This document shows positions 95 to 30,467 of a DNA stretch of 31,379 nucleotides, piece after piece. Source of the DNA: a virus (lineage: Duplodnaviria > Caudoviricetes); the IMG/VR virus record IMGVR_UViG_3300008255_000328, positions 1-31,379 of that record; one strand, written 5' to 3'. The notes below the pieces were generated by a model. It was given only the letters and a program-made list of their open reading frames with translations, ran no database searches and was not told the DNA's origin. The position numbers were made by a program, and so were the translations under genes. How positions within the stretch are numbered: the stretch's first letter is position 1; each line of letters begins with the position of its first letter.

Positions 95-588
95 TGAGTC
101 AGTACTTCGACCGCCTGTACGAGGTCACATCAATCCACAACGGATTCCAGCGTGACTACCAGGAGCCCATCGGCACCAGCGTGCAGTGGTACCGCTACCT
201 GGAGGGCACATCGGAGCACCACCCCGTATACGACGAGCCCTTCCCAGGTGGCACCACTGACTGGGCTTCCCCCATCACGGTCCCCGTCCTCGTGGCATTC
301 CAGTACGAGGGTGGGAGCACCCCTGGGGATAGTGGCTTCTACACCACAGACCGTTTAAACGTTACGCTCTCTTCCCGCACGGCTAGGGACTTCGGACTGG
401 GCAACCTCCAGGAAGACCGCACACACCTCAAGGATCGAATCGTCTACCAGAACGTGGTGTTCTCCCCGGAGCAGATCCGAGTCGCCGGTCAGATCGGTGA
501 CTACGAGGTCATCGTCGGTCTGGATTGCGCAGAGGTAGACCCCGACGAACTCGTTAACGCCCCCGACTTCGCAAAGTACGCACGCTAA
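94..588 (+). CDS. putative neck / head-closure protein
   Basis: 164 aa, TAATG-coupled at both ends, two genes before the sheath. Function inferred from synteny. Confidence 0.6.
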   Translation: MSQYFDRLYEVTSIHNGFQRDYQEPIGTSVQWYRYLEGTSEHHPVYDEPFPGGTTDWASPITVPVLVAFQYEGGSTPGDSGFYTTDRLNVTLSSRTARDFGLGNLQEDRTHLKDRIVYQNVVFSPEQIRVAGQIGDYEVIVGLDCAEVDPDELVNAPDFAKYAR

Positions 589-1238
589 TGGCATTCATCC
601 TGGCAGAAGACGCAGCCCTCAAGGAACAACTTGAGGGCATCATGGTGACCGATTCTGCTTCTGCCCAGAACAAGCGCCCGGTGGATGTCAAGTTCTCCTA
701 CCCCGCCAAGGAGCCGTCGGCAAGGGAGTTCCCCTTCATCGTGGTTCAGTTGGCGAGCATCCGGAAGTCCGACTTTCGTGAGATGCGGGGGATCATCCCC
801 TTCCACGCGGACAACTACATCCCCGATGAAGAGGACTGGGCTGACTATCAGCCAGGAGGTGCGAACGAGGGAGAGATCGTCTGGGCTGAGTTTCCTATTC
901 CTCACGACCTGTACTACATCGTCTCTACCTACTCGCGGTATGATTTACATGATCGGGAGATCCAACGCGAACTAATTCGTCGTCGGATCCCGTATCGTGG
1001 TGGTTGGGTACCCGTTGATGAAACGGTGCGAATGCTCCAACTCATCAGCATGCAGACCGCAGACTTCCTCGACAACGAGAAGCGCACCTTCCGCAAGACC
1101 TACACGGTACGACTAGAGAGCGAAGTAGCCCCGGAGATCGCGTACCGCAAGACAGCGGACATTGAAACCATCAACTTGACCACAAAGTGGGGCGTAGACA
1201 TCAACAATCTACGTAACTCCGAAACCATTTCCTTCTAG
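588..1238 (+). CDS. putative tail terminator / tail-completion protein
   Basis: 216 aa directly upstream of the sheath; segments 'FPFIVVQL' and 'DLYYIVSTYSRY..HDREI' resemble tail-terminator proteins. Confidence 0.6.
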   Translation: MAFILAEDAALKEQLEGIMVTDSASAQNKRPVDVKFSYPAKEPSAREFPFIVVQLASIRKSDFREMRGIIPFHADNYIPDEEDWADYQPGGANEGEIVWAEFPIPHDLYYIVSTYSRYDLHDREIQRELIRRRIPYRGGWVPVDETVRMLQLISMQTADFLDNEKRTFRKTYTVRLESEVAPEIAYRKTADIETINLTTKWGVDINNLRNSETISF

Positions 1239-1251
1239 GAGAGAAAGATAA

Positions 1252-2787
1252 ATGACGACTGCACTGGCCCGTCCGGGTACGTACATCACCGAAACCTTGC
1301 TGCCTGGTCGCGTAACCACGGGACCGCAGTCTCCTCCTGTGGCCTTCGTCCAGGAAGCGTTCCGGGGACCCACCACTTTCACTCGCATCACCTCGTGGAC
1401 TGAGTACACCAAGTACTTCGGTGCCTTCGAAGGTAGCGACAGTTTCCTCCCGTACTCCGTGTTCTCGTTCTTCCAGAATGGTGGCCGTGAGGCGTACATT
1501 GCACGTGTCGTTGGTGCCAACGGCGCGGTGGCTGCTGCTCCGGTGCTCCAGGACCGCAACACCGCTGTCACCACCAACGCACCTGCGGGTGCGGCACAGG
1601 ACATCCTCCTGGTCGAGGCACTGAACATCGGTGTATGGGGGAACGACTTAACCTTATCGGTGGCTGATGGCACCGACGAGGGGTTGTTCACCCTGTTGAT
1701 CAAGTTCCAGGGAACCGGGGACGCGGCGACCGTGGAGCGTTGGATTGACCTGTCAACCGACCCCTCACACCCCCGCTTTGTGGAGTCCGTTGTCAATGGG
1801 AACAGTACTTACATCAAGGCGACTGTAGACGTCAACAACGACACCGCTGAGCCGAACAACATTCCCGCTGTTCAGTCAGACACTCCCTTTGTCGGTGGAC
1901 TGGATGGGAACACCCCAACCGCAGCCGAGCAACTAGCCACTGTGGAGCAGTTAGACGCGATCGAGCAGCCGGTCATCCTCGTGGTGCCTGGTGAGTTCAC
2001 TGCAAGCAACGTCAATGGGATCATTAGTTACGCACAGGGCCGCGATGACATCTTCTACATCGCGGATGTCCCCCCTGCCCAGAGCCCTTCGGCTGTCATC
2101 ACCTACGCGGACAGCCTGACGCGCAACTCCCACGCAGCCATCTACTACCCATGGGTGAAGATGCCTGACCCGAACTCCACCGCGCGTGGTGCAACCAAGT
2201 TGGTACCACCCTCGGGCATGGTGGCCGGTCAGTACGTCACCACTGACCTGACTCGCGGAGTGTTCAAGACCCCTGCGGGTGTTGGGAACCTTCTGTCTGG
2301 TGTCGTGGATGTTGAGGTCAAGCCAACTGCGGACCAGTTGGGAAACCTGAACCTGGCTGGAGTCAACGCGATCCGCGTTCTGACCGGTCGCGGGATCGCT
2401 GTTTACGGTGGTCGTACGCTCCGCAAGACCAACGAGGTAGACCGCTACATCGGTCCGCGTCGAACCCTGATCTACCTGAAGCGTGCGTCCCGTGAACTAC
2501 TGGAGTTCGCACACTTCGAGAACAACGATTCCCGTCTTCGTAGTCGGGTGACCACCGACCTGACCAAGTTCCTCAAGGACTTGTGGCAGGCAGGCGGTCT
2601 TGCTGGTGGGAGCGCGAATGAAGCGTTCTACGTCCTGTGCGATGAGAGCAACAACACCGACATCACAATCGAGCAGGGTATCCTGAATGTTGAAATCGGT
2701 GTCGCCCTACAGTACCCAGCAGAATTCGTTGTGGTGACTCTGACCCAGATCCGTGCAGGTGGAACCACCACCGGCGATAACATCTAA
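1252..2787 (+). CDS. contractile tail sheath protein
   Basis: RPGTYITE N-terminus, 'ITSWTEYTKYFG', 'FFQNGGREAYIARV', 'YYPWV', 'VPPSGMVAG', 'GVFKTPAG', 'LNVEIGVALQYPAEFVVV'; RBS AGGAG upstream. Confidence 0.97.
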   Translation: MTTALARPGTYITETLLPGRVTTGPQSPPVAFVQEAFRGPTTFTRITSWTEYTKYFGAFEGSDSFLPYSVFSFFQNGGREAYIARVVGANGAVAAAPVLQDRNTAVTTNAPAGAAQDILLVEALNIGVWGNDLTLSVADGTDEGLFTLLIKFQGTGDAATVERWIDLSTDPSHPRFVESVVNGNSTYIKATVDVNNDTAEPNNIPAVQSDTPFVGGLDGNTPTAAEQLATVEQLDAIEQPVILVVPGEFTASNVNGIISYAQGRDDIFYIADVPPAQSPSAVITYADSLTRNSHAAIYYPWVKMPDPNSTARGATKLVPPSGMVAGQYVTTDLTRGVFKTPAGVGNLLSGVVDVEVKPTADQLGNLNLAGVNAIRVLTGRGIAVYGGRTLRKTNEVDRYIGPRRTLIYLKRASRELLEFAHFENNDSRLRSRVTTDLTKFLKDLWQAGGLAGGSANEAFYVLCDESNNTDITIEQGILNVEIGVALQYPAEFVVVTLTQIRAGGTTTGDNI

Positions 2788-2800
2788 GGACTAGGTACTA

Positions 2801-3406
2801 ATGCCACAGACGATTTATGATCACCGCTCGAAGGGCAACCTTTCGACTGATCCCGTCCGTAACTTCAAGTTCATCGTGGACATTGGTCATCCATCGTTCC
2901 AGGGAATGAACAACGCAGAGTTGCGCTTCGGGTTCATGGGCGTATCTGGACTGAACGTCAACATCGAAGAGATCCCCTACCGCGAGGGCGGGAACAACGT
3001 CACTCCTCGGAAGATGCCAGGCCAGGCCAACTACTCCAACCTGACCTTCACCCAGGGCGTCATCCTGGGTCGGTTCGCTGGATGGGACTGGTTCCAGGAC
3101 ATCTTCGACGTCGTACAGGGACGACCTCTGGGTGGTGGTTCCAACCGTGAGGCTGACTTCCGGGTGGACATGTACATCCACGTCCTGGCACATCCGTCGG
3201 GCCGTCGAGGAGCCAACCAGGCCAACTCCCTGCTGTCGTTCAAGGTCTTCAACGCTTGGCCGACCAGCATCGCCTTCAGCGACCTTGACGCTGGTGGTAA
3301 CGCCGTAGTCGTCAACCAGATGGTTCTAGCCCACGAGGGCTGGGTGCCGCTGCTTGCCGCCGACTACAACGATGACCAGGTAAGCCGGATCGCGCAGATC
3401 GCGTAA
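2801..3406 (+). CDS. tail tube protein (T4 gp19-like, Afp1/Pvc1 type)
   Basis: 'DPVRNFKFIV', 'YREGGNN..PRKMPGQANYSNLTF', 'FNAWPT...DLDAGGNAV....LAHEG'; follows the sheath. Confidence 0.95.
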   Translation: MPQTIYDHRSKGNLSTDPVRNFKFIVDIGHPSFQGMNNAELRFGFMGVSGLNVNIEEIPYREGGNNVTPRKMPGQANYSNLTFTQGVILGRFAGWDWFQDIFDVVQGRPLGGGSNREADFRVDMYIHVLAHPSGRRGANQANSLLSFKVFNAWPTSIAFSDLDAGGNAVVVNQMVLAHEGWVPLLAADYNDDQVSRIAQIA

Positions 3407-3447
3407 TCTTGCTCTAGTTACACGCACAACTCAATAGGAGACACAAC

Positions 3448-4338
3448 GTGAGTAAGGACATCCCATTCAACATGGGAACAGCAGAAGGCGCGCAGGTCGT
3501 AGACCCTGACCAGATCGGTCTGGAGGACATCGACCCGTCCCAGGCAAACGCACTCGCTCAGAAGGCGATGAAGGCGGCAGAGGAACCAGATGAGCGGGCT
3601 GAACACCCGATCATTGACCTTCCTCCGGACGGGTCGGTGGACCTCCTTGTAGGCGTTCCCGTCAAGGGAGAGATGGCATTCACCGCTGTCGTTCGTGAAC
3701 TGACCGGTGAGGACGAGGAGTTCCTGGCGCAGCCTGCGAACACCAAGACCGCACTGCGGTACATGAAGGCCATCCTTGAGCGCGCGCTCGTACGCCTGGG
3801 TGACCACAAGGTGAGTGCGTACACCATCCAGGACATCACGCTGGCTGACGCGGATGTCATCGTCCGTGCGGTACGCCAGGTGACCTTCGGCAACGAGATC
3901 CGTTTAAACGATCTGGTCTGTCCTGCCTGTGAGTACGAGATGGACGTCTCCTACGATCTCACCGAGGATGTTCCTGTAAAGAAGCCTCTGGGGGAAAAGG
4001 GACAGCAGGTCTACGAATTCACCACGGAGGACGGCAAGAAGGTCAAGTTCCGTCTGCCGACCCTGGGTGATCAGACCAAGGTGGTGGATGCTGATGTGTC
4101 CAACATCGCGGAGGCGAACACCCTCCTCCTGACCGAGATCATCGACAGCATCGATAACGTCCCCATCACCCGCGCTGCGGATGTCCGGAACATGTCCATG
4201 CGGCTCCGTCGTGAGATCGTTCGTGAGGTGGACCGTGTCAATCCCGGCCTGCGCTATCAGGACGTCGAGCACGAATGCTCTTCGTGTGGGATGAAGTTCC
4301 CACTGGTCCTGTCCACAGCGGACCTCTTTCGCCTCTAG
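3448..4338 (+). CDS. tail assembly chaperone (T4 baseplate protein-like, two CxxC motifs)
   Basis: 'VRELTGEDEEFL', 'RAVRQVTFG', CPAC and CSSC motifs, 'FRLPT..DQ'; lies between tube and tape measure; RBS AGGAG then GTG start. Confidence 0.85.
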   Translation: MSKDIPFNMGTAEGAQVVDPDQIGLEDIDPSQANALAQKAMKAAEEPDERAEHPIIDLPPDGSVDLLVGVPVKGEMAFTAVVRELTGEDEEFLAQPANTKTALRYMKAILERALVRLGDHKVSAYTIQDITLADADVIVRAVRQVTFGNEIRLNDLVCPACEYEMDVSYDLTEDVPVKKPLGEKGQQVYEFTTEDGKKVKFRLPTLGDQTKVVDADVSNIAEANTLLLTEIIDSIDNVPITRAADVRNMSMRLRREIVREVDRVNPGLRYQDVEHECSSCGMKFPLVLSTADLFRL

Positions 4339-4510: not shown

Positions 4511-7500
4511 ATGGTCACATCTAATGAACCTAATCTCTCCCGACACGGGGAGATGGAACTCGTAGACAGCGCTCTCCAGCGGCCCGCCCAATTCGATGGC
4601 GGGTCGCGTGGTCTTTCCTACAGCTTCGAGTCGACGAGCAAGTCTATTGACGAAGTATTGGATAAGACTGAAAAGCTGACCAAGCACATCTCTGGTCAGG
4701 GTATGAGTGCTCTGGAGAAGTGGACCAAGAAGGTCAAGGAACTCGCTGAGTACACCAAGGATCTCGCTGAGCACCAGGCCAAGTACGCAGGGGTCGCGGG
4801 CTTCGGGGGATCAACAGGTGGTGGAGGGGGCAACGGGGGCTCCGGGTCCACCGCTGGTCTTCCTGTGCCCGGAGGCGGGAACAACAACGGTGGGCACGGG
4901 GGAACCACCGCCACTGTCATCGGGGTCCAGCGCACCAATGGTGGAGGACGTGGTGGAGGACCTGGTGGTCCCGATGGGCCTAACCTCTCAGGCCCTAGTT
5001 GGTCTGACCGTTTCCGCTCGTACCTGAGCACTCCTCAGGGACGTGCTGTCGCGGGGACAACAGCCGCTGTCCTGGGTACGGCTGCGGTGGCGGGAGTGGC
5101 GTACAACAACGCTCAGGACCATGTGATCGCGGGCGACCTGCTGTACAACCAGATCGGTTCGTACTCAGCGGGGGCGCGGGGGAACGGTGGGCTGACTCCG
5201 GGGTCGATGGTTCGTCAGGATCGTGACCGTGCACGTGACCTGTTCGCGGACAACCCACGGATGAACCGTGGATTCAGCGGCGAGGAAGAGTTCGTCAATT
5301 CCGTCCAGGGGCTCCGTAACGGCGGGATCGGTGCGTACACGGGGATCGGTGCCAACGGCGGGATCGGGGGCAACCTTGCGACGGCTACCCAGACCGCATC
5401 GAACATCGCCACGATCACCGGGATCTCGGGTGCCCAGGCATCCCAGGCTGCGCCAGGGCTCTACTCTGCAACCGCGTCCCACGCGCTGCGCGCGAACGGT
5501 ATCTCCAACATGTCCAATGGGCAGTTGCGCAGTGACACTGACATCGCGCGGGACGTCGCACGAAAGATCGCGAACACCGCGCAGTTACGTGGACAGAACA
5601 TCCGTAACCCTCGTGTACAGAACGGGATCATCAACGCCCTGATGACCGAGGGCACTCCCGCGTCTCGTGGTCTAGCCGAGGTTACCGGTGGCGTGGGGAC
5701 TCCCCTCCACCAGGCCGTGGTGGAGCAGATCCGTGGGAACTTCCAGACCAACTTCAACTACAACCCCACCCGCCAGGGTGACCGTGACAGCACCGGTACC
5801 GGCACCTCACTCGTCAACTCCGTGCAGGGAGCGGGCGCAGAGCGTACCGCACGTCAGTCTGCCTTCTCCCAGGCGATGACCGACGATGTCGCACGTACCC
5901 AGGGCTTCCTGGAGGACGTCAACCGCTTCAACGAGGAGAGCGGACTAGCAGCGGGACTGGGTAACGTCACAGGTGTCCTGGGACCGCTGGGTGACGCCAT
6001 CGGGCGTGTCACCGGACTGCTGAACACCTTCGGTATCGCACTCCTGGCATGGCAGGGAATGGGAAGAGGACGTGGTCCTGGTGGGGGGCCGACTCCTGCG
6101 CCCGTCCCCGGTCGTAACGGTCCGCGTGGCCCACGTGGTGGTCCTCGTGGTGGGGGCCTCGGTGGTCCTGCCATCGCCGTGGCAAGCGGTGTCCTTGCTG
6201 GTGGGAACATCGGTACCGCTGCGTACAACAACTCCGAGGGCTACCGGAACTTCATCGATGACAACTACGTCGGCCATGACGACCACTTCGGGCTCACCGA
6301 GCAGGTCGTCGGTCGTGCAGGTGCGTTGTTCACCGGCAACTTCCGTACGGCTTTCTCTGGTCTGTCAAGTGACGCATACCGGAATGCACTAACCAACTCC
6401 GGTGGTGGCATGATCGAATCGGTCACCACTGCGGGACGTAACATCGGTGACCCCCCACTGTCTGGTTCCACTCGGATGGACCCACGACTGCGTCAGGGAA
6501 TCGGCGCGCTGATGCAGATGAACCCTCGTCTGCGTTTAAACAGCGGCGCGCGTTCTTCGGGTGAGCAGGCATCCCTGTTCAGCAAGGGTGTGACCAACGT
6601 ACCGCCGGGTCACCAGGAGTCTCGTCACGAGCGTGGTCTTGCTGCTGACATCGGGCCGTCCACCGAACTTGGATGGCTCCAGGAGAACGCGCCCAAGGTG
6701 GGACTGGAGTTCCCCCACCGTGGAGAGCCGTGGCACGTCGAGGTCGCCGGTACCCGTAACGACTTCTCGCGCTACCGCTCAGAGCATGGCGGTGGAAGTG
6801 AAGGAAACCCTCCTCCGCTGGAGACGTCCGGGGGCAATCCGTTCAACCTTCCGAACTACCCTGTCCCTGCGTCCATGCAGCGGTCAGAGACTGGGTCGGT
6901 TCTGGCTGCCTATCTGCGCACCGCGTTCGGTGAGGGCGAGGCACGGATCACCAGTGCGTATCGTCCTGGGTCCACCACCGCATCAGGGAACGTCTCCAAC
7001 CACCGCTCAGCGCGCGCTATCGACATCGCTGGTCCAACCCCCACCCGCGCCGGTTGGGGTGACTCAAGCCTGCGCCGGATCTTCCAGCACTTCTGGCGGA
7101 TCAAGGGCCACCTGCGTGAACTGATCCTGTCGGGCGTTCCGGACAACCAGAAGTGGATCACGAGCGGTCAGGAGAATCCTCCGAACAAGTCGGGGACCGC
7201 ATGGCGTGACCACTGGAACCACGTCCACGTCGCCACCCACAACCGCAACCTTCCCTTCGTCGGGGCGATGCTTCCTGAGGGGTCGGCTGACAGCAGCACA
7301 GTCCAACAGGGCAGTGGTGGTGGAGGGACGCGGAACGCTCCCTCATCGATGTACGGATCCGTCAGCGAGGCTGAGGCGACCGCGTCTCTGCTCTCCGGTG
7401 GACGCACCCGTGAAGGTGGTGTGGTCAACAACTCCACCACAGGTGCAGGGCGTCGTGCTGCCGTGGGGTCTGATGGTGGAATTGAGCAGTTCCTCTCTGG

Positions 7501-9391: not shown

Positions 9392-11003
9392 TAACTCGTT
9401 AGTCGCGTACGCCAACGAACAGCGTATGTTCGCCTCCTACCGGCCGCGTGCCGCGCAGGCTAAGTTGCTGATCTATGGCATCGATGACGCCAAGTACAGC
9501 CACGAGGCTGTCGAGGTTGACGTGGCATCGATGGAGATCCACCAGGAGGAGTACAAGCACGACGTTGCGATCATCCGCGTGCGCCCGAACAACTCGCTGC
9601 GGAAGGCACTCCGTCACCTCCGTCCCGTGAAGTTGCGTTGGGGCTACTCGTCTGGGGACGGGGGCCGTTCAACGTTCTACGGCTACGTCCACAGCACAGA
9701 CTTCGAACACCGTCCAGGACGTCGTCTCATGGAGGTAACGCTGATCGGTGCGACGTACCGCATGCGCACACGACGTAACAAGTTGTGGTTGGACGACGCG
9801 GCGACCTACCCCGTGCTGTGGCACGCTGAGCGGCACTACTTCGGGGTGTACACACAGAACAAGCGCCTCCGTCGCTTCCGTCGTCTGATGCAGACCACCC
9901 GCCAGACCGATTGGCAATTCCTGGTGGAGGTTGCGCAGCGCAGTGGTTGCACGCTGTACAACAAGGGAACCTCCCTGCGTCTGTACCGTCGGGACTCACC
10001 CCCAGACCGTCTTTATCGCTTCGCTCCGGTCTTCGATGTGCGCCGTAGGGAGATCCGTCGGTTCCACATCACCGAGGGCCTAGACGGGGGCAATGTGGCC
10101 CGTCCTGACATGCTCTCAGACCTTCTCCGGGGTGTGCGGGCGGGGACCTCCTCTGACGGGTGGTTCTATGATCCGATCAGCCGGGAGAACGGGCTGGCTT
10201 ACATCGCCTCCAACAACGCAGAACTGTTGAGTGTGGATCAGGCGCTCCAGATCTCCGACGGGTACTCCCGCGCGGACTCCGCGCGAGTGATGCACTACGG
10301 TCGACCGCAGTCACCTTCCTCAAGCCCATCGCAGGACACCACGTCGTTCATCGATCGCATCACGGACAATGGGTGGCACCCAGACTCCCTGGGCGAACTG
10401 ATGGACGAACTCCGGGCGCACCGTCGTTTAAACAGTCGCCCTTACAAGGCGCGTGCTCGTCTCGCCGGGAACCCCAAGGTGCACCAGGGAATGGTGGTCA
10501 ACCTTCTCGGACTGGACCGGGGAAGTGGACTGTGGTACGTCGAGAAGGTCGAGCACAAGTTGACCACCGACCGCTACTACATGGACTGCATCCTCTCCAA
10601 GGAATCCCTGGACGAAGACTCCCGCCGTCCGTGGCCCATCTGGGTGTCCCCGCTGGTTCCGATGGTGCCGGTGGATCCCCCGGTATCTTCACGCCCTGAT
10701 CCCTCGTACACATCACCAGATCCGACGAACCCGTTCCCCATCGATCTTCCAGTGCTGGTACTCCCTGAGCCGCCCCTTCTGCCGACCAATCCGACCGAAA
10801 CCGAGGATGGGACCTCCCCGTTCCCCACCATCCCCGGTGACTTCGGGAACGACCCAGCCGATGGGTCCCTGGTGATTGACGAGGATGTGCTCATGCACCG
10901 TGCCCCCTCGTGTCCTGTCCAGTCACGACCCTTCAACTCATCCGGTGAATGGAGAAGTAAGGTGGTAGGAATCACACAATGGCCTACCGAAGATGACTCT
11001 TAA
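9384..11003 (+). CDS. baseplate hub protein (P2 GpD / T4 gp27 / VgrG N-terminal-like) with Pro-rich C-terminal tail
   Basis: 'QTDWQFLVEVAQRSG', 'GNPKVHQGMVVNLLGL..SGLWYVEKVEH'; directly precedes the spike. TTG start uncertain. Confidence 0.8.
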   Translation: MPSNSLVAYANEQRMFASYRPRAAQAKLLIYGIDDAKYSHEAVEVDVASMEIHQEEYKHDVAIIRVRPNNSLRKALRHLRPVKLRWGYSSGDGGRSTFYGYVHSTDFEHRPGRRLMEVTLIGATYRMRTRRNKLWLDDAATYPVLWHAERHYFGVYTQNKRLRRFRRLMQTTRQTDWQFLVEVAQRSGCTLYNKGTSLRLYRRDSPPDRLYRFAPVFDVRRREIRRFHITEGLDGGNVARPDMLSDLLRGVRAGTSSDGWFYDPISRENGLAYIASNNAELLSVDQALQISDGYSRADSARVMHYGRPQSPSSSPSQDTTSFIDRITDNGWHPDSLGELMDELRAHRRLNSRPYKARARLAGNPKVHQGMVVNLLGLDRGSGLWYVEKVEHKLTTDRYYMDCILSKESLDEDSRRPWPIWVSPLVPMVPVDPPVSSRPDPSYTSPDPTNPFPIDLPVLVLPEPPLLPTNPTETEDGTSPFPTIPGDFGNDPADGSLVIDEDVLMHRAPSCPVQSRPFNSSGEWRSKVVGITQWPTEDDS

Positions 11004-14000
11004 CTCTTACCCCGGAATCTACCGAGGAATTGTCTCGGACAATGACGACCCCCTAAAGAGGGGTCGTCTCATTCTGCGTGTCCCGCATGTTACCGGAAAT
11101 GAGGTAACTGACTGGGCGTGGCCGTGTCTTCCAGGTCGGGGTCACGGTCAGCACACCCTCCCAGTTGGACACGAGGTCTGGGTGTCCTTCGTAGGTGGGA
11201 ACCCCGAACAGCCGGTGTGGATGGGAACAGCCCAGTACGACGGGAGTCAGCGTCCTTCCCAGATGGCGTGGCGGGGCGGGTGGATCGACTCCACCGACTA
11301 CTACGACGGTGACGTCGTCTCGTGGGAGGGCTACACCTACATCGCGCGTCCTGGTGGTGGGGGGAAGATCCCCAAGAACACCGAGCCGCCGACTGGTGCG
11401 TGGGACGTCTTTGCACCCAACCCTGACCACTTCCATGAGCACGACCACAGCCACCCGGTCGAGGGAGTCACCCCACTCCAGACAACTGCGTCTCTGGGTG
11501 CGGACTTTGACGGTAGCGGAATCGGACCTGCGGGTGGTTCCGGGTCGGGCACCGGGGGGACCGGAGGCTCCGGAGGGGGTGGAGGAGGAACCGTAACCTC
11601 CGTCAGTGGGACCGCGCCGATCCAATCAACGGGCGGCAGTGACCCGATCATCACCATCCTCCCTGCGACCACGTCAGCAGCGGGGTCGATGTCGGCTGCG
11701 GACAAGACCAAGTTGGACGGCATCGAGGCAGGTGCTACCACTGACCAGACCAAGGCTGACATCGACGCACTGAACATTGCCGCGTCGTTCTTAAAGGACG
11801 GGGGTAACCAGCGTTCCTACCCCTACATCGTAGATCGTGCGAACCACACTGGTCTACAACTCGCCGCAACCATCTCGGACTTTCAGACCCAGGTGAGAAG
11901 CAACCGGTTGGACCAGTTTGGTTCGCCGACAGCCGACCTGAACATCAATGCCAAGCGCCTTACCAACGTCGCGGATCCAGTTGCAGATGCAGATGCAGCA
12001 ACACGCGCTTACGTTGAGACACGTATCGTCGGACACAATCACGATGCACTTGTTCACGAACACGACGAGACGTACTCACAACTGGGCCACGTCCACAGTC
12101 AGTACTTCCTGTCAGCCGACCACACCACAGCGGCGCACAACGCACTTGGGATCGATGCAGCAACAGTGGGAACCCGCAATGCTGCATACCTGCTTAACCG
12201 TGCGAACCAGACTGGTGATGTTCCTGTCGCCAACGTGGGCGGGTTTGATTCTGCGGTGCGCGGGTACCGCCTGGATCAGTTCGTCCAGCCTGGTGCGACT
12301 CTGGACTTCAACAACCAGCGCGTGCTCAATGTCACAGTTGGTCCCACCCCCAGTGCCGGTGACGCGGCGAACGTCGGCTACGTGGACACCCAGATCGGCG
12401 GGCACGAGCACACCGAATACTTCCTGGCTGACAACCACACCCAGACCAACCACGATGCATTTGGGTACCTGAAGGAAATCGAACACACCAAGGCGCTTCA
12501 CGACGTCCTTGGTATCGACGCCGGGACGCTGGACGGGCTAGATAGCACCCAGTTCGCCCGCAGCGACGTCGTGACCAACCACGTAGCCCTCAGTGACCCC
12601 CACGCCCAGTACGTGCTGGAGACGGCGTTTGACGCGCACCACCACGATGCCGTCTACGTCAATGAATCTGACCACACCAAGGTGTCCCATGACGCCTTGG
12701 GCATTGACGCGGCAACGGTTGGGGGTTTAAACAGCACCGCCCTGCTTGGTCGCGGGAACCACACCGGAACCCAGCCCGCAAGCACCATCTCGGACTTCAA
12801 TGCGGCGGTGCGAACCAACCGCCTCAGTGAAATGGCTGTACCCACCACCGACATCAACCTGAATGGAGTCCAACTAACCAACGCGGGATTCGCGGGGGCT
12901 GCCGAACCCAACACCCTCACACCACGCTGGTACGTTGACCACCAGACAAACAACCACGATTCGTTCCACGATGACCGGTTCGTTCAGATTGCCAACCACA
13001 CCACCGCCGCGCACAACGGCCTCAACATTACCGCAGCGAACCTCAAGGACGGAACGTCGCCTGCAAGAGATGTGGCATACCTCGTTGCGCGTGCGAACCA
13101 CACAGGCACCCAGCCACTGTCAACGGTCAGTGGGCACAACAAGACCGCGCATGATGGGTTCGGGTACTACGACGCCAGCACCCACACCAAGGCCCTTCAT
13201 GACTCCTTGTCAATCAACGCGGGCACCGTAGGTTCTGCGACTGCTGCACAACTTCGTGATCGTGCGACACACACCGGCACACAGACCGCTGCAACCATCT
13301 CGGACTTCAACACTGCTGTTCGTACAAACCGTTTAAACGAACTCACCGCCCCCAGTGCTGCGGTGTCCATGGCGAGTCAGAAGATCACCAATCTCGCGAC
13401 TCCTACGCTGAGCGCGGATGCGGCGACCAAGGGCTACGTGGACACCCAGATCGCAACGCACGACGGTCAGCACGACGATCGTTTCATCCAGATCACCAAC
13501 CACACCAAGGCTCTCCATGATGGCCTTGGAATTGATGCTGCGACTGTAGGAACACGGGCACCTGCGTACCTACTGGACCGGGTGAACCACACCGGGTCAC
13601 AGACGGCCAGCACCATCTCCGACTTCAACACAGCCGTTCGGACCAACCGCCTGAACCAGATGGCGTCCCCCAGCGGCGCTGTGTCGATGGCGAACCAGAA
13701 GATCACGAGCGTGGGCGACCCATCCTTCGCCCAGGACGCGGTCAACCTTCGCACACTCGAAGCGCGCGTGGGTACAGCGAGCACAAACACCAACGCCTAT
13801 GTGGACACGCAGATTGCGAACCACGACAACCAGCACCACCTGAACGAACTCGCCGCCGTGGCGAATGTCACCGTCGGCGGGTTCAAGATCACCAACGTGG
13901 GTGCTCCCACACTGCCTGCTGATGCGACCAACAAGTCGTACGTGGACAACTCCGTATCTACTGCGGTAGCCCCATTGGCGTCAACCTCGTACGTGGATGT

Positions 14001-14487: not shown

Positions 14488-15425
14488 GCAACAGACCTCG
14501 CCTGCCTCGTTTAAACACCTTCCCCGTCAACGCGGTGACTGGTCAGACGTTCTTTCACACTGGGAAGATGCTCCCGTACTACTACACCGGGTCCGGGTGG
14601 CGTCCCCTGAACACTGGTCCTAATGCGAAGTTAGAGGATCAGAGTCAGTTGTCGGACGTACTGGATCACGTACTCACTTTTCCGAATCAGGTACAAAACA
14701 CCCACAGTGATGAGTTTGAAACCACTGTTGAATTACCTGAACAGAACTCCCTTGATGATGAGTTATTTACTGTTAATGGAGACATCACACCACCTGACGA
14801 CTTCGCATTTTATTCTAGTACGGGACAGGAAACAGTCCACATTCCCTCGCTCTCGTTTGTAGCACGTGAGAGCACATGGATCCGGGAGAGTAGTCCTTCC
14901 TCAAAGGGATCTACCTCTTCTTTTATTAATGTCCAGGGTCCCGCCGCACTAGGGGGCAACCGTGCAAAGGCGTACGTTGGGTTTGACTTTGGGATGTTCA
15001 GCAACATCACCATGACGAGCCCTACGGGGGCACGATCAACCCAGAATTTTTCTATCTACGCGAGGTACCAAACCTCTACAGGAGATCTCCGAACTTCGTT
15101 TACCTTGTCCTACTCGGCCTACCGGTACTTCAACCCACCCAATCTTGTTGACCACACGTGGAACACCAATGATGGTGGACTGCCATTTGGGACTAAGTCG
15201 TTGATTGCTACCGGTTCAAATACCGTCAACACCGACACCTTCGCCTTTGAGCCTTTCGGACTCATCGGCACCACGGCAGACGACGTCATCAATAATCATG
15301 ACTACCTTCTGTACGAGTTCTCATCCACAGAAACTGACGCGGACATCCGAATCATCGGTGTGCCCTACAGCACTCTGCCTGAGCGGCGTCCAAGGGCCGA
15401 TCTCAACAACCTGTATGTACTATAG
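14484..15425 (+). CDS. hypothetical virion protein, possibly spike/fibre tip associated
   Basis: ATG 14484 overlaps the spike stop (ATGA), a better start than 14448; Ser/Thr/aromatic-rich; more AT-rich codons. Confidence 0.6.
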   Translation: MSNRPRLPRLNTFPVNAVTGQTFFHTGKMLPYYYTGSGWRPLNTGPNAKLEDQSQLSDVLDHVLTFPNQVQNTHSDEFETTVELPEQNSLDDELFTVNGDITPPDDFAFYSSTGQETVHIPSLSFVARESTWIRESSPSSKGSTSSFINVQGPAALGGNRAKAYVGFDFGMFSNITMTSPTGARSTQNFSIYARYQTSTGDLRTSFTLSYSAYRYFNPPNLVDHTWNTNDGGLPFGTKSLIATGSNTVNTDTFAFEPFGLIGTTADDVINNHDYLLYEFSSTETDADIRIIGVPYSTLPERRPRADLNNLYVL

Positions 15426-15973: not shown

Positions 15974-16386
15974 TGGCGATCACCGAACGTCTCCCAACCG
16001 CGATCGATACCCCGTTCCACTTCGACGGGTTTGGTCGTGTGGCTTTCACGCGCGATCCTGCGGTACAGGCCGTGAACCGCCTGGCTGGTCTGATCGACAC
16101 CCAGTACGGCGAGCGCGTCATGCGTCCCAACTTCGGGACCGACGCACGCAAGATGGTCTTCGAAAACCGCAACAAGGGCAACATCGGAATCGCGATGAGT
16201 GACATCCAGCGCGCGGTGAACCTCTGGGAAAGCGAGACACCCCTTCTCCGTGTGAGTTCCAGCATCGATGACTCTGCCCCTGAGCGTTTAAACCTCGATG
16301 TGGCATTCTCCATCTTCAACGAACAGGGTGAGAAGGAAGTCTACGAGGCCGTGATTGAGATCGGTGGAGAGGTGGTCAACCAGTAA
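15973..16386 (+). CDS. baseplate wedge / sheath initiator (GpW/gp25 family)
   Basis: 'TQYGERVMRPNFGT..MVFE', 'AVNLWE'; start set at ATG 15973 from the TAATG overlap. Confidence 0.92.
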   Translation: MAITERLPTAIDTPFHFDGFGRVAFTRDPAVQAVNRLAGLIDTQYGERVMRPNFGTDARKMVFENRNKGNIGIAMSDIQRAVNLWESETPLLRVSSSIDDSAPERLNLDVAFSIFNEQGEKEVYEAVIEIGGEVVNQ

Positions 16387-17870: not shown

Positions 17871-18862
17871 TGGCTGCGTACCCAGGAACAATCAAGACCT
17901 TCCTCTCCAAGACCAACGTCATTGACTCGGTCCAGGCTTCGCACGTCAACGAACTCCAGGGCGAAGTCTCTGCGATCGAAACCGCGTTGGGAGCCAACGT
18001 AAACATCGACGCTGACGGTGTTAACCGAGGGTCAGTGCGTCAGCGTTTAAACACTCTTCAGACAGACAAGGTGTCAGAGAGCGACCACAACAACAGCCTT
18101 CACTCTGCCATCTCGCACAACGCACTTGCAGACCTGGCCTCAGGAAACCCACACACGCAGTACGTCAATCACAACCTCGCAACAAGTCGTGGGCAAGTGC
18201 TGGTGGGTGGCTTGGGAGGTGCGTCGGGGTTTAAGACCCTCAACCGAGGAGCGGCGGGAACCTACCTGACCCCGAACGGTAGTGGCGATTTGCAGTGGTC
18301 ACCCCTGCCTCAGCCTGATGGTGGTGCGAGGGTCATCCTCTCACAGAACCCCAACACCTTGGTGTACGGCACCACTGGGTGGCAGAACCTGCTGTACTTC
18401 GTCATGCCAGCGGGCTCGTTGGAGCACGGGGACCACCTCCGGATCACTCTTGCGGGTGACTACTTTGAAGGTACGACCCAGTACAACGATAGAAACCTAC
18501 GGGTTCTGATCAATGGTTCCCAGACCCTTGCGATGGCAGCGATTGGTAACCGTTGGGCAGTAACTACTGGCCGTACCGGATGGTGGACTGCTGATTTTGA
18601 TCTGTATGCCCTTACTCAGGGAGGGGTGTCTAACATTCGGGGACAGTTGGTTGCCAGCAACCTGGAATCCGGGGCGTCATGGGAAGGTTCGGCCAGCAAC
18701 TACCGTAGTTACAACTCGAACACCTATACCGGTCTGTCTTCTACACCGGCTCTCGACCTTACCGGTAACATCACATTCCATCTTCAGATCTATGGTAACT
18801 ACAACACCAACAACTCTTGGACTCGTACACGGTCCTTCAGTGCAATCACCAATCGCGCGTAA
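17870..18862 (+). CDS. putative tail fibre / receptor-binding protein
   Basis: N-terminal 'ASHVNELQGEVSAIETALG', 'NPHTQY' fibre motif, Trp/Tyr/Asn-rich C-terminal domain. Confidence 0.65.
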   Translation: MAAYPGTIKTFLSKTNVIDSVQASHVNELQGEVSAIETALGANVNIDADGVNRGSVRQRLNTLQTDKVSESDHNNSLHSAISHNALADLASGNPHTQYVNHNLATSRGQVLVGGLGGASGFKTLNRGAAGTYLTPNGSGDLQWSPLPQPDGGARVILSQNPNTLVYGTTGWQNLLYFVMPAGSLEHGDHLRITLAGDYFEGTTQYNDRNLRVLINGSQTLAMAAIGNRWAVTTGRTGWWTADFDLYALTQGGVSNIRGQLVASNLESGASWEGSASNYRSYNSNTYTGLSSTPALDLTGNITFHLQIYGNYNTNNSWTRTRSFSAITNRA

Positions 18863-18872
18863 GGTTTAAACA

Positions 18873-20692: not shown

Positions 20693-23600
20693 ATGACCTT
20701 CAACGCATACTACGGGCTGTCGCAGTATGGGGACCAGTTCCACTATGGAATTGAGGATGCCCCTGACTTTGAGGTTGACAGGCTTTTAGTTGAATCGTTT
20801 GACTATGGGTCACTCATCATCACCTGGCCCAGCCCCTCTGGACCGGACTGGACGAACATTCGCCTAGTTCGTTCATCCATTGGACCCCCGGTTGTGATTG
20901 ATGAGGGACGCACCGTCTACGAATCAGCGCGTGAAACCGATGGCAATTCCTACATCGATGAGGACAACATCGAGCCTGGTGAGGTCTACTACTACGGCTT
21001 ATTCGTCCTGGAGTCCACCGGTCTGTGGCGTTTCGTTGCACCTGGTCAGGGGACCCCATTAAAGGACTGGGGTTACCGCGACCGCCTCTGGGAACTGATT
21101 CCGGAGACGTACCGCATCTCAGACCAGGTGGCGGCGTCCATCGACACCTATCACGATAAGGGTCCGCTTCAGAGGTTCCTGGAGGTCTTCGCCCAGGAGT
21201 TGGACTACATCCGTAGCGAATACGAAAACCTGCGGAACACCAACAACTTCGAGAAGGTCCCTGCTCAGTTGCTGGGGCCGGTGTCGCAGCAGTTGAACCT
21301 CACCATCGAGCCCCTTCTGGGCGTCTCCTTGACGCGTCGGTTCCTTCAGAATGCGTTGTTCGTGTACAAGCGCAAGGGATCCCTGCGCGGGGTTGAGGCA
21401 CTGGTCAGCGCGGTTACTGGATGGTCCAACGATGCACGCTGGAACCCTGATGAGGCCAATGCGGGGGCCAACCCACGTGTGGTCATCCGGGTACACCCGG
21501 ATCGAATCAACCTCCTACCGAACCCCTCGTTTGAATTCGCGGAGGACCCCGAGGACCCCAATGACTACATCCAGTCGTGGGGAACCAAGATCCTCGATGG
21601 CAACGGGGACCCGATCAATGACAACACCTCCCCGTCAAAGGAAGTCAAGTCAGACCCAGACTGGGGATACGGAGGGTCTATCGAGACGCTGAACGTTGCG
21701 TCCCCCTTCCTGATCGACCTGGAAGGTTGGGATCGTTCCAAGGCTGCCTGGATTCCCGGTACGGCGGGGAATTACTTCTCCACCGTAGACAAGCCCTCCC
21801 TTGACATCACCGGCCCACTCCAGGTGGAATGGGAGGGCGCGGTCAACGACTGGGATAGACAACAGACTCTTATCGCAAAGTGGGACGCAACAACGAACAA
21901 CAGATCCTGGAGCCTCTACACCAACAGTTCTGGAGTTCTCCAGTTCGCGTTCACCGCTGATGGGTCTACTCAGTTCACAGCAGTAGGACCCGACATTTCC
22001 GCGTATGTGGAACGAGGTCTGCAAGCGTTCAAGGTCCACCTGGAATTCCCCGGATCCGGGTACGTCGTGTCGTTCTACGCTGCTGACAACATCGGTGGTC
22101 CTTGGACTGAGGTCGGATCGGTTGCGAACACGTCGGGACCAACGTCCGTTTTCTCGGGCACTGCGGACCTCTCTGTCGGAGCGGTGGATGACGGGGCCAC
22201 CACCCCGTTCAAGGGCGCGGTGACCCGCGCGCGTGTCTACAGCGGCATCGGCGGTACCCTGGTCGCCGACTTCGACCCGCGTCGTTACACCTCCGGTACA
22301 GCGTTTGTGGGGTCGAAGGGGAACCAGTGGCTGATCAACGAAAGTGGAACCCCCTCTTCGAAGATCCTCGACCGGAACTGCTTCGCATTCACAGGTTCGG
22401 AGTACCTGATCGCGACCGCGCGGGAGAGTTTAAACACCAACAACCTGACCGCGTTAGTCGTGTGGAACCGCTCTGGAGTGACCCCATCGAGCCACCAGAC
22501 CATCATGTCGCACAAGGCTGGGCCAGAGTCCTCCAGCGCTGGGTGGCTCTTAAGAAACCAGACCAATGACGCGATCGTTGGTCTGGTGTCTGATGGCATC
22601 ACCGATGAAACCACCGGGGGTGGTGGGCAAGCCATTGGTGTGTCCGCAACCAGTGGATGGAACGCACATGTTCTGAAGATCCGTGTCGCGGATGACACGT
22701 TATCCATGACGGTACAAGACACGTACCAGACCTCCGCAACAAGAACCAAGACCCCGTACCAGTCGATCCACAATAACCAGAACTTCTCTATTGGAGCCCT
22801 ACCTGCCGGGGGAGCCCCATTCCTCACTGAGCACGTACAGGCAGTGGTATTGGTCAACTCACAGTTGTCATCCGATGAAGTGGAGGAGTTCAAGCGTTGG
22901 GCTCAGCGTGGAGCGTTGGTGTCCGAGGAACCCAATTGGATCCGCACGCAGACCACGTTCTACATCAACGCTGATGATGACACCGTGCGGCAGAACTACC
23001 TATCAGACAACGACGTGCACAACCTGTCCCAGGACAACGTGCTCCACGGGAACCAGTCTGTACGATTAGAAGCGATCAATGCCGGTAGTGTTCTGATCGT
23101 GTGGCCCGATTCATCCGGCTACGCCTACGCGGTGTACGGCGCTTCCCTCTATGGTCAGAAGTTGTACAACGACCAGCCGCGAGACGTCAACGCCAGCGTC
23201 AGTGCGTTCGACCTGGCAGATGCGGAAGCGCTGAGACGTTACGTGTTCGCTGGGCATGTGAAGAGTAAGAGCACGTCGCGACCGGTGACACTAGCGGTGA
23301 TTTGGTACGACGTGGATCGGGTTCCAATTGACGCGGTCACCGAAACGATCACGACAACGCCCGGAGCCTGGAAGCGTTTAAACCTCTTTGCTACCGCACC
23401 TGAGAATGCACGGTTTGTCTCCGTTGCTATGGAAATCCATGAATGTGACGCAGGAGAGGTTCACTTTGTAGACGCGTTCATGTTGGAACAGTCTTCGATT
23501 CTTCGGGACTACTTCGATGGTTCGAGTGTTCCCGCTGACGACTACACTTGGGAAATCATTCCGAACACCTCTAAGTCTTTCTTCTGGGACCGTATCCAGA

Positions 23601-25697: not shown

Positions 25698-25718
25698 CAC
25701 AGCGTTTAAACTTGCTGT

Positions 25719-27575: not shown

Positions 27576-27647
27576 ATGAATGCAATCCATCTTCTGGTTG
27601 TCGTAGTCATCCTCGTGGTGCTCCTGAAGATCCTCGGAATCGTTTAA
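27576..27647 (+). CDS. 23-aa hydrophobic single-TM micropeptide
   Basis: AAAGGA RBS then MNAIHLLVVVVILVVLLKILGIV*; the stop lies inside GTTTAAAC. Confidence 0.6.
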   Translation: MNAIHLLVVVVILVVLLKILGIV

Positions 27648-27656
27648 ACAGATCAT

Positions 27657-28300: not shown

Positions 28301-28385
28301 GGTAGATTGGCAGAGCGGTAATGCAACGGTTTGCTAAACCGTAGTCATCCTTACGGATGCGCAGGTTCGATCCCTGCATCTACCA
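28301..28385 (+). tRNA. tRNA-Ser(GCT)
   Basis: GGTAGAT/ATCTACC; ACGGT-TTGCTAA-ACCGT; long variable arm. Confidence 0.92.
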
Positions 28386-28404
28386 CGTTAGGTAATACCC
28401 TTAT

Positions 28405-28480
28405 TCCTCTGTAGCACAATAGGCAGTGCGTCCGGCTGTTAACCGGAAGGTTCTAGGTTCGAGCCCTAGCGGAGGAGCCA
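28405..28480 (+). tRNA. tRNA-Asn(GTT), encoded CCA
   Basis: TCCTCTG/CGGAGGA; TCCGG-CTGTTAA-CCGGA; GCCA end. Confidence 0.93.
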
Positions 28481-28481
28481 T

Positions 28482-28557
28482 AGGTCGGTGGTCCAGCCCG
28501 GTTACGGACGCCTCTCTGATAAAGAGGAGATCGCAGGTTCAAATCCTGCTCGACCTA
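28482..28557 (+). tRNA. tRNA-Ile(GAT)
   Basis: AGGTCGG/TCGACCT; CCTCT-CTGATAA-AGAGG. Confidence 0.92.
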
Positions 28558-28569
28558 TACTTGGTCTGC

Positions 28570-28655
28570 GCATGCTAGGCTCAGACCCTACAACCAGCAT
28601 GCTAGGCTCAGACCCTACAACCAGCATGCTAGGCTCAGACCCTACAACCAGCATG
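28570..28655 (+). repeat. perfect 27-bp tandem repeat x3 plus 5 bp
   Basis: GCATGCTAGGCTCAGACCCTACAACCA three times, then GCATG; no spacers. Confidence 0.97.
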
Positions 28656-28727
28656 GTCCGTTGGACGAGCGGAAAAGTCGTCACCCTCTCAAGGTGAAGG
28701 TCAGGGGTTCGAATCCCCTACGGACTA
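28655..28727 (+). tRNA. tRNA-Glu(CTC)
   Basis: GGTCCGT/ACGGACT; TCACC-CTCTCAA-GGTGA. Confidence 0.92.
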
Positions 28728-28748
28728 CGTACAACTTCATACAGACTT

Positions 28749-28851
28749 GGCCGACTAGCCCCCGTGTGAAAACGGATCCGGTTGCAGTCCGCGCGACCTG
28801 AAATCGCGTCTAGGATTGTGGTGTTCCACTAATGCTCACGGTCGGCCTCCA
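28749..28851 (+). ncRNA. 103-nt tRNA-like RNA with acceptor stem and TCCA end but no canonical T-loop
   Basis: GGCCGAC/GTCGGCC + TCCA; CCGT-GTGAAA-ACGG hairpin; long arm GCAGTCC-GCGCGA-CCTGAAA-TCGCGT-cta-GGATTGT. Confidence 0.55.
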
Positions 28852-28854
28852 CTT

Positions 28855-28926
28855 GGTCCCGTCGTCTATTGGCTAGGATCTGGGTCTTTCAAGCCCATGA
28901 ACAGGGTTCGATTCCCTGCGGGACTG
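28855..28926 (+). tRNA. tRNA-Glu(TTC)
   Basis: GGTCCCG/CGGGACT; TGGGT-CTTTCAA-GCCCA. Confidence 0.92.
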
Positions 28927-28930
28927 CTTT

Positions 28931-29003
28931 GGCGCTCTAGCCCAACGGCAGAGGCAACGGTTTCAAACGCCGTAAAGTCTGGGTTCGAATCCCAGGGGCG
29001 CTA
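28931..29003 (+). tRNA. tRNA-Leu(CAA), short variable loop
   Basis: GGCGCTC/GGGCGCT; ACGGT-TTCAAAC-GCCGT; A73. Confidence 0.88.
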
Positions 29004-29023
29004 CGCAAGACAATTACATACAT

Positions 29024-29096
29024 GGAGGCGTAGCCCAACGGCAGAGGCAGCGGGCTTAAAATCCGCTCAGTGTGGGTTCGAATCCCACCGCCTCTA
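29024..29096 (+). tRNA. tRNA-Leu(TAA), short variable loop
   Basis: GGAGGCG/CGCCTCT; GCGGG-CTTAAAA-TCCGC; A73. Confidence 0.9.
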
Positions 29097-29116
29097 CTGT
29101 CGTTTAAACGACACAT

Positions 29117-29189
29117 GCCGCTCTAGCCCAACGGTAGAGGCACTGGTCTTAGGAACCAGTCAGTCAGGGTTCGAATCCCTGGGGCGGTA
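29117..29189 (+). tRNA. tRNA-Leu(TAG), short variable loop
   Basis: GCCGCTC/GGGCGGT; CTGGT-CTTAGGA-ACCAG; A73. Confidence 0.9.
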
Positions 29190-29194
29190 CGCAT

Positions 29195-29265
29195 GGCTGG
29201 TTCGTCTAATGGGAAGGCCGCTCCCTTACAAGGAGACGACGGGGGTTCGATTCCCTCACCGGCTA
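29195..29265 (+). tRNA. tRNA-Val(TAC)
   Basis: GGCTGGT/ACCGGCT; CTCC-CTTACAA-GGAG. Confidence 0.88.
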
Positions 29266-29281
29266 CTTCAACTGAATACCT

Positions 29282-29356
29282 GGGGCACTCGCCTAATTGG
29301 CTATGGCACCACTCTTCCAAAGTGGAACAATCGGGGTTCGAATCCCCGGTGCCTCA
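29282..29356 (+). tRNA. tRNA-Gly(TCC)
   Basis: GGGGCAC/GTGCCTC; CCACT-CTTCCAA-AGTGG. Confidence 0.88.
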
Positions 29357-29379
29357 CCTGAGTTAGTTACACTGGTTCC

Positions 29380-30105
29380 ATGTTCGAACTTCGAGATGGA
29401 ACCAGAGTTGAAGATCCTCGTCTGGGTCGGTTGACTCACTTCGATGAGAGATCCCGCAACTACCCAGTGACGGCTGGCATCGAGGCCAAGAAGCCGCGCT
29501 CCTACCACTGGCGCATCAACAACGGCGCGCTGGACCAGGGACGTGAGGGAGCCTGTGTCGGGTTCGCCTGGACCCACGAACTCCTGGCCCGCCCTGCTGA
29601 AGTTCCTGACCTGGACGCACGCTTCGCGCGTGAGGTGTACCACCAGGCGCAGCGTATCGATCAGTGGCCCGGAGGTACCTACCCCGGCGCGAGTCCGGTG
29701 TACGACGGCACGAGCATCCTCGCGGGTGCGAAGTCGATGGTGTTCCGTGGGTACATCGGTGAGTACCGATGGGCCTTCGGTTTAAACGATCTGATCCTCG
29801 CGCTGGGCTACAAGGGTCCCGCTGTTCTGGGGATCCCGTGGTACTCATCGATGTACCAGACAGAGGCTCGTGGGTCCCAGCAGTGGGTGAACGTCAACGG
29901 CAACATCGTCGGTGGACACGCCATCGTGGCTAGAGGCGTGAACATCAAGGGTGAGTACGTTACGCTTCACAACTCCTGGGGACCGACCTGGGGAATCAAC
30001 GGAGACGCGCGCATCTCGTTCAGTGATCTGGACAAGTTGCTGAAGCAACAGGGTGAGGCGTGCATCCCCGTGGAGCGGTACAAGAAGCCCAAGATCAACA
30101 ACTGA
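29380..30105 (+). CDS. papain-family (C1-like) cysteine protease
   Basis: 'LDQGREGACVGFA' (Gln oxyanion, catalytic Cys), 'GGHAIV' (His), 'HNSWGPTWGING' (Asn). Confidence 0.92.
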   Translation: MFELRDGTRVEDPRLGRLTHFDERSRNYPVTAGIEAKKPRSYHWRINNGALDQGREGACVGFAWTHELLARPAEVPDLDARFAREVYHQAQRIDQWPGGTYPGASPVYDGTSILAGAKSMVFRGYIGEYRWAFGLNDLILALGYKGPAVLGIPWYSSMYQTEARGSQQWVNVNGNIVGGHAIVARGVNIKGEYVTLHNSWGPTWGINGDARISFSDLDKLLKQQGEACIPVERYKKPKINN

Positions 30106-30111
30106 ATACCT

Positions 30112-30183
30112 AGGGGTGTCGTCTAATGGACAAGACCGGGGCCTTTGAAGCCCTTAATGTAGGTTCGATCCCTACCGCCCCTT
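30112..30183 (+). tRNA. tRNA-Gln(TTG)
   Basis: AGGGGTG/CGCCCCT; GGGGC-CTTTGAA-GCCCT. Confidence 0.9.
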
Positions 30184-30185
30184 CC

Positions 30186-30258
30186 GCCACCGTAGTGTCA
30201 ATGGCGAGCACGCGCCCTTTGTACGGCCGAAGAGTGGGTTCGAATCCTTCCGGTGGCT
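30186..30258 (+). tRNA. tRNA-Thr(TGT)
   Basis: GCCACCG/CGGTGGC; CGCCC-TTTGTAC-GGCCG (one C-C mismatch). Confidence 0.85.
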
Positions 30259-30261
30259 CTT

Positions 30262-30357
30262 ATGGATAGAGTATTTACGAAGATCGAAATGGTTCTCTGG
30301 ACCACTGGGTACCTTGCAGGTGCCGCATTGGCGTTTGCAGGCTCCGCGTTTGGGTGA
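30262..30357 (+). CDS. possible 31-aa hydrophobic peptide
   Basis: MDRVFTKIEMVLWTTGYLAGAALAFAGSAFG*; no clear RBS. Confidence 0.35.
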   Translation: MDRVFTKIEMVLWTTGYLAGAALAFAGSAFG

Positions 30358-30461
30358 TCGGTACGCTGATCTTCCAGTTCTTCTTCCTGCTCTACAGGTA
30401 TTACGCAATTAAGAAGAGAGCAGCACGATTGCGTGATCTGTTACAGAACGTGCACGTTTAA
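30354..30461 (+). CDS. possible 35-aa membrane peptide
   Basis: GTGA overlap; MIGTLIFQFFFLLYRYYAIKKRAARLRDLLQNVHV*; stop inside GTTTAAAC. Confidence 0.35.
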   Translation: MIGTLIFQFFFLLYRYYAIKKRAARLRDLLQNVHV

Positions 30462-30467
30462 ACACTT

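Follow-up and report, generated by a model that had tools for sequence, protein, structure and literature searches.

An array of eight-base palindromes in the late region of a myovirus, likely targets of a phage-encoded zinc ribbon

The palindrome GTTTAAAC occurs 17 times in IMGVR_UViG_3300008255_000328 (positions 1 to 31,379), the whole stretch of phage DNA analysed here and referred to as the window. These 17 palindromes are a real signal, which is held by selection on the DNA. They are likely to be the targets of a phage-encoded zinc ribbon of about 50 residues, probably a repressor, the gene of which would lie outside the window; judging from sequence comparisons, the probability of this reading is roughly 0.55. 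The candidate reader would be the C-terminal domain of the SprT-like protein of family phrog_6361, or that domain alone. Genome comparison shows that, across unrelated phages, the word GT(T/G)TAAAC tracks the presence of an intact ribbon rather than that of the protease.

The palindrome in the window

An earlier note on this DNA, based on its letters alone, had reported 17 exact copies between 353 and 30463 and a large excess over chance. The recount gave the same number, and 100 dinucleotide shuffles of the window (58% GC) contained 0.08 copies on average and one at most. The 24 called genes hold 12 of the copies, compared with a mean of 0.26 and a maximum of four in 2000 synonymous-codon shuffles, and the enrichment therefore survives when the codons are preserved. 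One-mismatch variants are at background (3 copies, 3.5 expected), and the variant GTGTAAAC has no copy in the window. Other 8-mers with at least six A or T reach at most four copies each, words overlapping the motif excepted; AT-rich 8-mers are thus not equally enriched. The sites at 353, 12725, 13331 and 16286 are covered by contigs of runs X2 and X3, and no change is listed there. As these four sites are intact in runs other than the probable source, the word is not an assembly artefact. The 17 sites are as follows (no strand is assigned to a palindrome).

353..360: within gene 94-588 (Arg-Leu-Asn)
3902..3909: within the baseplate hub/tail chaperone gene 3448-4338
6534..6541: within the 1205-residue gene 4511-8128, which has a transglycosylase domain and, from its position, would be the tape measure
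10426..10433: within the tail protein gene 9384-11003
12725..12732: within the spike/fibre gene 10993-14487 (Gly-Leu-Asn)
13331..13338: second copy in the spike/fibre gene 10993-14487
14509..14516: close to the start of gene 14484-15425
16286..16293: within the gp25-like wedge gene 15973-16386
18045..18052: within gene 17870-18862
18864..18871: intergenic, ending 1 base ahead of the ATG at 18873
22428..22435: within gene 20693-23722 (Ser-Leu-Asn)
23376..23383: second copy in gene 20693-23722
25704..25711: intergenic, ending 7 bases ahead of the ATG at 25719
27642..27649: closes a short hydrophobic frame, 7 bases ahead of tRNA-Phe
29102..29109: between two tRNA-Leu genes, 7 bases ahead of the second
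29780..29787: within the peptidase gene 29380-30105 (Gly-Leu-Asn)
30456..30463: closes a short hydrophobic frame, 4 bases ahead of tRNA-Arg

As the earlier note had stated, all 12 coding copies are read in one phase, xGT TTA AAC, the first codon being that of Arg in nine cases, Gly in two and Ser in one. The single phase needs no special cause, because one of the other phases contains a stop codon and the third requires AAA, which is used for none of the 196 Lys residues in the window genes. The word is used by 12 of 17 compatible tripeptides and accounts for 12 of the 39 TTA codons. Arg-Leu-Asn is overrepresented in the window proteins (10 occurrences, 2.65 expected, p 4e-4), and it is not kept in homologues at the four sites that have at least 15 aligned homologues. 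These two observations suggest that the protein sequence has yielded to the DNA word. The tripeptide at 13648 is indeed written CGC CTG AAC, as noted earlier. The shuffles bear out the earlier proposal that a DNA-level signal under selection is superimposed on the code, and the proteins themselves were bent to it.

A preceding C is found at 13 of the 17 copies, in agreement with the earlier count. More generally, a pyrimidine before and a purine after the word are found in 27 of 34 flanking positions (p 4e-4), a preference common to ribbon-linked arrays. The interval of 1.9 kb given earlier is correct as a mean but not as a period: the gaps range from 606 to 3892 bases, and the spacing is evener than random (coefficient of variation 0.56, P 0.013; smallest gap, P 0.003) but not periodic. 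Comparable even spacing is found in the phages UNTPL (coefficient of variation 0.53) and R5C (0.61). The five non-coding copies end 1-7 bases ahead of a start codon or a tRNA gene, and two of them close micro-open reading frames, as had been claimed. These positions fit occupancy at gene starts, yet they also reflect where free sequence exists.

The word and the SprT-like/ribbon gene in other phages

The gene family that accompanies the word, phrog_6361, was approached from both the protein and the DNA. Loci found via the protein carry GTTTAAAC or GTGTAAAC at 25-70 times expectation. The first protein-first set, which includes many kin of the seeds, has 645 copies of GTTTAAAC where 9.2 are expected, with enrichment in 63 of 80 loci. 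In a diverse set of 80 loci (GC 36-73%), GTTTAAAC is found 197 times (6.4 expected) and GTGTAAAC 294 times (11.7 expected), and 54 of the loci reach p<1e-4; the alignment behind this set was seeded mainly by cultured phages, four of the six seeds, which are themselves word-rich. When 167 loci were grouped into 40 clusters at 60% identity, the only adjustment made for relatedness, the representative was enriched in 29.

The word-first scan returned 133 of an estimated 540 or so loci, of which 75 (at least 4 kb) were scored and 58 dropped. The gene or the ribbon is present in 40 of 54 enriched loci and in 5 of 21 unenriched ones (Fisher p 1.4e-4, kinship not corrected). Among the 14 enriched loci without the gene, one has a ribbon elsewhere on its contig, and the other 13 belong to records at most 50% complete. 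The triple-word scan yielded 19 loci. Twelve are dispersed arrays, eight of them with the gene or its tail; the remaining seven, set aside as tandem repeats or chance, have none. A scan for tRNA genes plus the word gave 78 loci, nearly all due to chance, and only one of them (L306) led to a gene-bearing provirus.

Cultured carriers of the gene infect Streptomyces, Arthrobacter, Microbacterium, Dinoroseobacter and Methylophilales and have 17-39 sites each: 39 in the whole genome of UNTPL, 17 in that of R5C, 23 in UtzChips, 17 in Emotion and 34 in Venkman. The variant is split between the strands 15/8 in UtzChips, 22/15 in UNTPL and 2/15 in Emotion, orientation being undefined for the palindrome. 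Emotion has the gene and 17 sites, whereas BaileyBlu, recorded from the same host strain, has neither gene nor site, which argues against a host protein as the reader. A complete gene-bearing phage of 146 kb has 13 variant sites, compared with one for the reversed control; large genomes can thus carry the word-gene pair.

The predicted structure of one phrog_6361 member (mean pLDDT 94) consists of a zincin followed by a C-terminal ribbon. The best fold match of the zincin is proabylysin, a weak one (E 3.5e-3), and the Pfam SprT-like match to the partner protein lies below its cut-off. The HExxH motif is invariant in the protease-bearing partner proteins. The C-terminal unit is built of two strands and one helix, in which Cys, Gln-x-Thr-Arg, Lys and Arg residues are conserved. 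Searches of solved structures by sequence and of the Atlas gave nothing significant.

A stand-alone zinc ribbon of 55 residues, with no protease, accompanies equally dense arrays. The 35 ribbon-only loci, which include seeds and one probably cut protease gene, have 760 sites (11.8 expected; 1.98 per kb), and 41 protease-bearing kin have 960 (13.4 expected; 2.05 per kb). Since the ribbon-only loci keep full arrays, proteolysis is not what maintains the sites. In a complete genome of 39.6 kb (G022), which encodes the ribbon without the protease, 27 of the 39 sites fall in the 9.4 kb around the ribbon gene and the other 12 in the 20 kb that follow; the site density of the window matches that of this sparse part. 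No site occurs in any of nine Microbacterium phages with altered ribbons (five of these ribbons are fused, four stand-alone), which have other residues at the conserved positions, and LK3, the tail of which lacks the ribbon motif, has one.

The stand-alone altered ribbons replace the SprT-like gene and are annotated as hypothetical in the Microbacterium phages Albedo (L517, 592-750), Didgeridoo (L518, 631-792), Avocadoman (L519, 405-563) and Stoor (L525, 431-595). In another locus (L557, 5797-8203), a divergent terminase is followed directly by the stand-alone ribbon, and the genes downstream of it are, we presume, amidoligase-like and glutamine amidotransferase-like. A rule by which the variant of the word would go with the amino acid that follows TR(M/L)xK was rejected, because it is broken in the ribbon set, where Val pairs with GTTTAAAC.

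Proposed function and competing explanations

In three of four locus sets, the density of sites peaks immediately 5' of the ribbon gene. In the diverse set, the 250 bases upstream of the gene carry 2.35 sites per kb, compared with 0.2-0.8 in other bins. At least one site lies within this distance in 44 of the 80 diverse loci, and in 37 of 38 and 32 of 32 loci of the ribbon set. Operators at the start of a DNA-binding protein's own gene are the usual mark of autoregulation, and together with the upstream clustering this points to a small repressor. The ribbon, presumably encoded in the part of the genome beyond the window, would bind the word directly. Sites at the promoter of its own gene would then provide autoregulation and control of the early operon, and the dispersed sites, one every 1-4 kb, may dampen transcription or titrate the ribbon by genome copy number. 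The fused protease, where present, would be an accessory and optional switch.

Several observations weigh against this proposal. No SprT-like/ribbon gene was found in the window with two profiles and a motif scan, the window being a 31-kb fragment of late genes; the membership of its phage is therefore judged by the word itself, the bases that flank it and the spacing of the sites. This is the weak link, as the connection rests on other genomes and no close relative was found that supplies the gene. A genome that is 88% complete (G001; loci L429 and L430) has 18 copies, all in its first 19 kb, and no ribbon gene match. Conversely, p<1e-4 is not reached by 11 of the 40 cluster representatives, and in several of these the ribbon looks intact; one locus with such a ribbon (L469) has no site, and one in its 30.5-kb record, and ECO1230-10 has 5 sites where 0.97 are expected. 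The first protein set has no upstream clustering (14 of 80 loci), and the ribbon-only loci look like one kin group. Finally, the prediction that altered ribbons bring a new word failed: no replacement was found among contiguous 7-9-mers and gapped 4+4 words in seven of the nine altered-ribbon phages and LK3, which argues against a simple swap of specificity.

It is unlikely, but would be compatible with the same reader, that the ribbon marks phage DNA as self, either by coating it or by delivering the protease, in the manner of SPRTN or ArdC, to remove crosslinks or host defence proteins bound to the DNA. The even spacing throughout the window, UNTPL and R5C would suit coverage of the genome, most carriers keep an intact HExxH zincin, and the window phage avoids many restriction-type palindromes. 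However, the full arrays of ribbon-only phages and the clustering upstream of the gene, which points to regulation, speak for another role, and one small protein per 1-4 kb would cover little DNA. SPRTN reads DNA structure, whereas here the duplex sequence appears to be read; nor is the protease needed for the DNA-linked trait, unlike in SPRTN and Wss1. The likeness to these proteins and to plasmid ArdC lies in the linkage of a zincin protease with a part that binds DNA, and antirestriction by ArdC needs no protease activity (PMC7213743). ArdC has its domains in the reverse order, and it binds single-stranded DNA with no preference for a sequence. Less probable still is that another host or phage protein reads the word in the window, its likeness to the ribbon-linked word being convergent or a relic. 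This would account for the missing gene in the window, for the word without a detected gene in G001 and for BRock and four other sheath-related records, in which no SprT-like/ribbon gene was found. The window is a late-gene fragment, though, the array of G001 begins at a contig edge, the sheath relatives without the gene are also without the word, and the flanks and spacing in the window match those of ribbon-linked arrays; a host reader is further opposed by the Emotion and BaileyBlu pair.

It is improbable that methylation-biased repair has accumulated functionless sites in a ratchet, as proposed for HIP1 of cyanobacteria. HIP1 is likewise an exact 8-base palindrome highly iterated in coding DNA, and in a model its frequency levels off at close to one per kb (PMC4390886); the word in the window reaches about 0.5 per kb. 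HIP1, however, is chromosomal, GC-rich and tied to a methyltransferase, whereas GTTTAAAC occurs in phages and follows the ribbon gene. Furthermore, amino acids were changed to create sites, 80 bacterial loci have no excess of the word (one copy, 4.0 expected), and no methyltransferase was found among the 26 proteins scanned in the window, itself a fragment. The earlier suggestion of a HIP1-like methylation target is thus unsupported, and so is that of partition, packaging or ejection. Sites acting as signals for nicking, packaging, pausing of ejection or recombination would be evenly spaced along the genome, as observed, but we consider this very improbable: the word follows the ribbon gene and not structural genes, the carriers differ in their virion gene sets, and in G022 most sites crowd around the ribbon gene. 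An artefact, or a by-product of composition or codon use, has next to no probability. The window genome does have strong word biases, the tetramer AGCT being at 3% of expectation, but this explanation is refuted by the dinucleotide and synonymous-codon shuffles and by the independent runs, and three loci (L425, L004 and L408) in which AGCT is likewise lost, with the same word biases, have no copy of GTTTAAAC. Overall, the interpretation in the earlier note is partly supported; a protein-binding site is the best of its readings, and other phages provide a candidate for the protein that reads it.

The likely targets of the ribbon can be compared with the stoperators of Cluster A mycobacteriophages (PMC9283540). 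Stoperators are asymmetric 13-mers that lie in promoters and in short intergenic spaces and follow the direction of transcription; their reader is the L5-type repressor, a monomer with two domains (a helix-turn-helix and a stoperator domain). In both cases tens of short sites throughout the genome would serve one phage protein, likely for repression. Compared with that account, the site in the window is an 8-base palindrome, 12 of the 17 sites are inside genes, the candidate reader is modelled as a two-strand, one-helix ribbon with Cys ligands, and GT(T/G)TAAAC varies little between phages from different phyla. The array would work like stoperators but fails their defining site shape, position and reader.

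No description of the word-ribbon pairing, or of the word in phages, was found in the literature searched, which did not cover most subscription journals. A preprint on Cluster AZ Arthrobacter phages (bioRxiv 10.1101/2025.05.26.655371) predicts DNA binding for the tail of the SprT-like protein, reports that a truncated allele of it leads to clear plaques, and expects an SPRTN-like function. Its available text names no binding site, has no match to the word and does not describe ribbon-only arrays; it mentions unshown 'repeat sequences' near the gene, which could bear on novelty. Our verdict is that the signal is real and selected, and probably a genome-wide phage operator array, which in this case reaches into the late genes of a large myovirus. 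If the repressor proposal is right, a family that 164 cultured-phage records name only as 'SprT-like protease' would gain both a binding site and a role. Unlike the sites of immunity repressors, the operator array would hardly change between phages of Actinobacteria and Proteobacteria, and in fragments like the window the presence of the gene could then be predicted from the word. A bolder idea, tentative and on balance doubtful, is that a mobile 50-residue ribbon, after its acquisition by a phage, causes the genome of that phage to change its own sequence, even at the level of amino acids, until it bears a near-universal 8-base address every 1-4 kb that tags its own DNA. Such an address could deliver the protease or count genome copies, and would amount to a self-addressing system in phages of several bacterial phyla.

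The window phage and its other features

The window contains the tail, baseplate and fibre region and 25 tRNA genes of an uncultured, distantly BRock-like myovirus, and its sequence was found in groundwater runs. The closest cultured phages are BRock-like Streptomyces phages (sheath 38% identical). This kinship and the codon use suggest an actinobacterial host. The single sheath search found no relative close enough for testing the conservation of sites, the best match being 46% identical. Neither enrichment of GTTTAAAC nor a ribbon-gene match was found in 159 sheath-related loci, which have 22 copies where 52 are expected (16 and 30.3 in 80 viral loci; 6 and 21.6 in 79 metagenome loci). BRock has four copies of GTGTAAAC and none of GTTTAAAC in 112.5 kb. 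A ribbon-profile match in the window (E 0.08) was rejected as an antisense frame without the motif, and none of the gene-bearing loci compared by composition matches as another piece of the window genome. A promoter and terminator scan of 18000-31379 was at or below chance.

Like AAA, the codon ATA is unused in the 24 called genes (0 of 417 Ile residues), and GCA, GGA and GAA are common; a near-absence of AAA and ATA is also found in other actinophages. AGCT has two copies in the window and none in the 25 tRNA genes. CCCGGG, CCGCGG, CTCGAG, CTGCAG, GCCGGC, GGCGCC, GGGCCC and AGGCCT are absent from the window, and GGTCTC/GAGACC from its genes, which resembles restriction-site avoidance.

The tRNA cluster (26077-30542) includes Leu(TAA), the reader of the TTA codon imposed by the word, and Lys(CTT), but not Lys(TTT). 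Amid the cluster, a gene of 204 residues (26326-26940) has no Pfam or PHROG match; it contains a GHHR motif, which we take to be ParB/Srx-like. At about 28570-28654, three 27-base units are seen by eye, head to tail, just 5' of tRNA-Glu. A very acidic open frame (30630-31379) runs off the end of the window and has a weak DUF7282 match below the cut-off. In a 50-base part of the sheath gene (1509-1557), 10 differences are common to runs X2 and X3, which suggests a recombined allele in a second strain.

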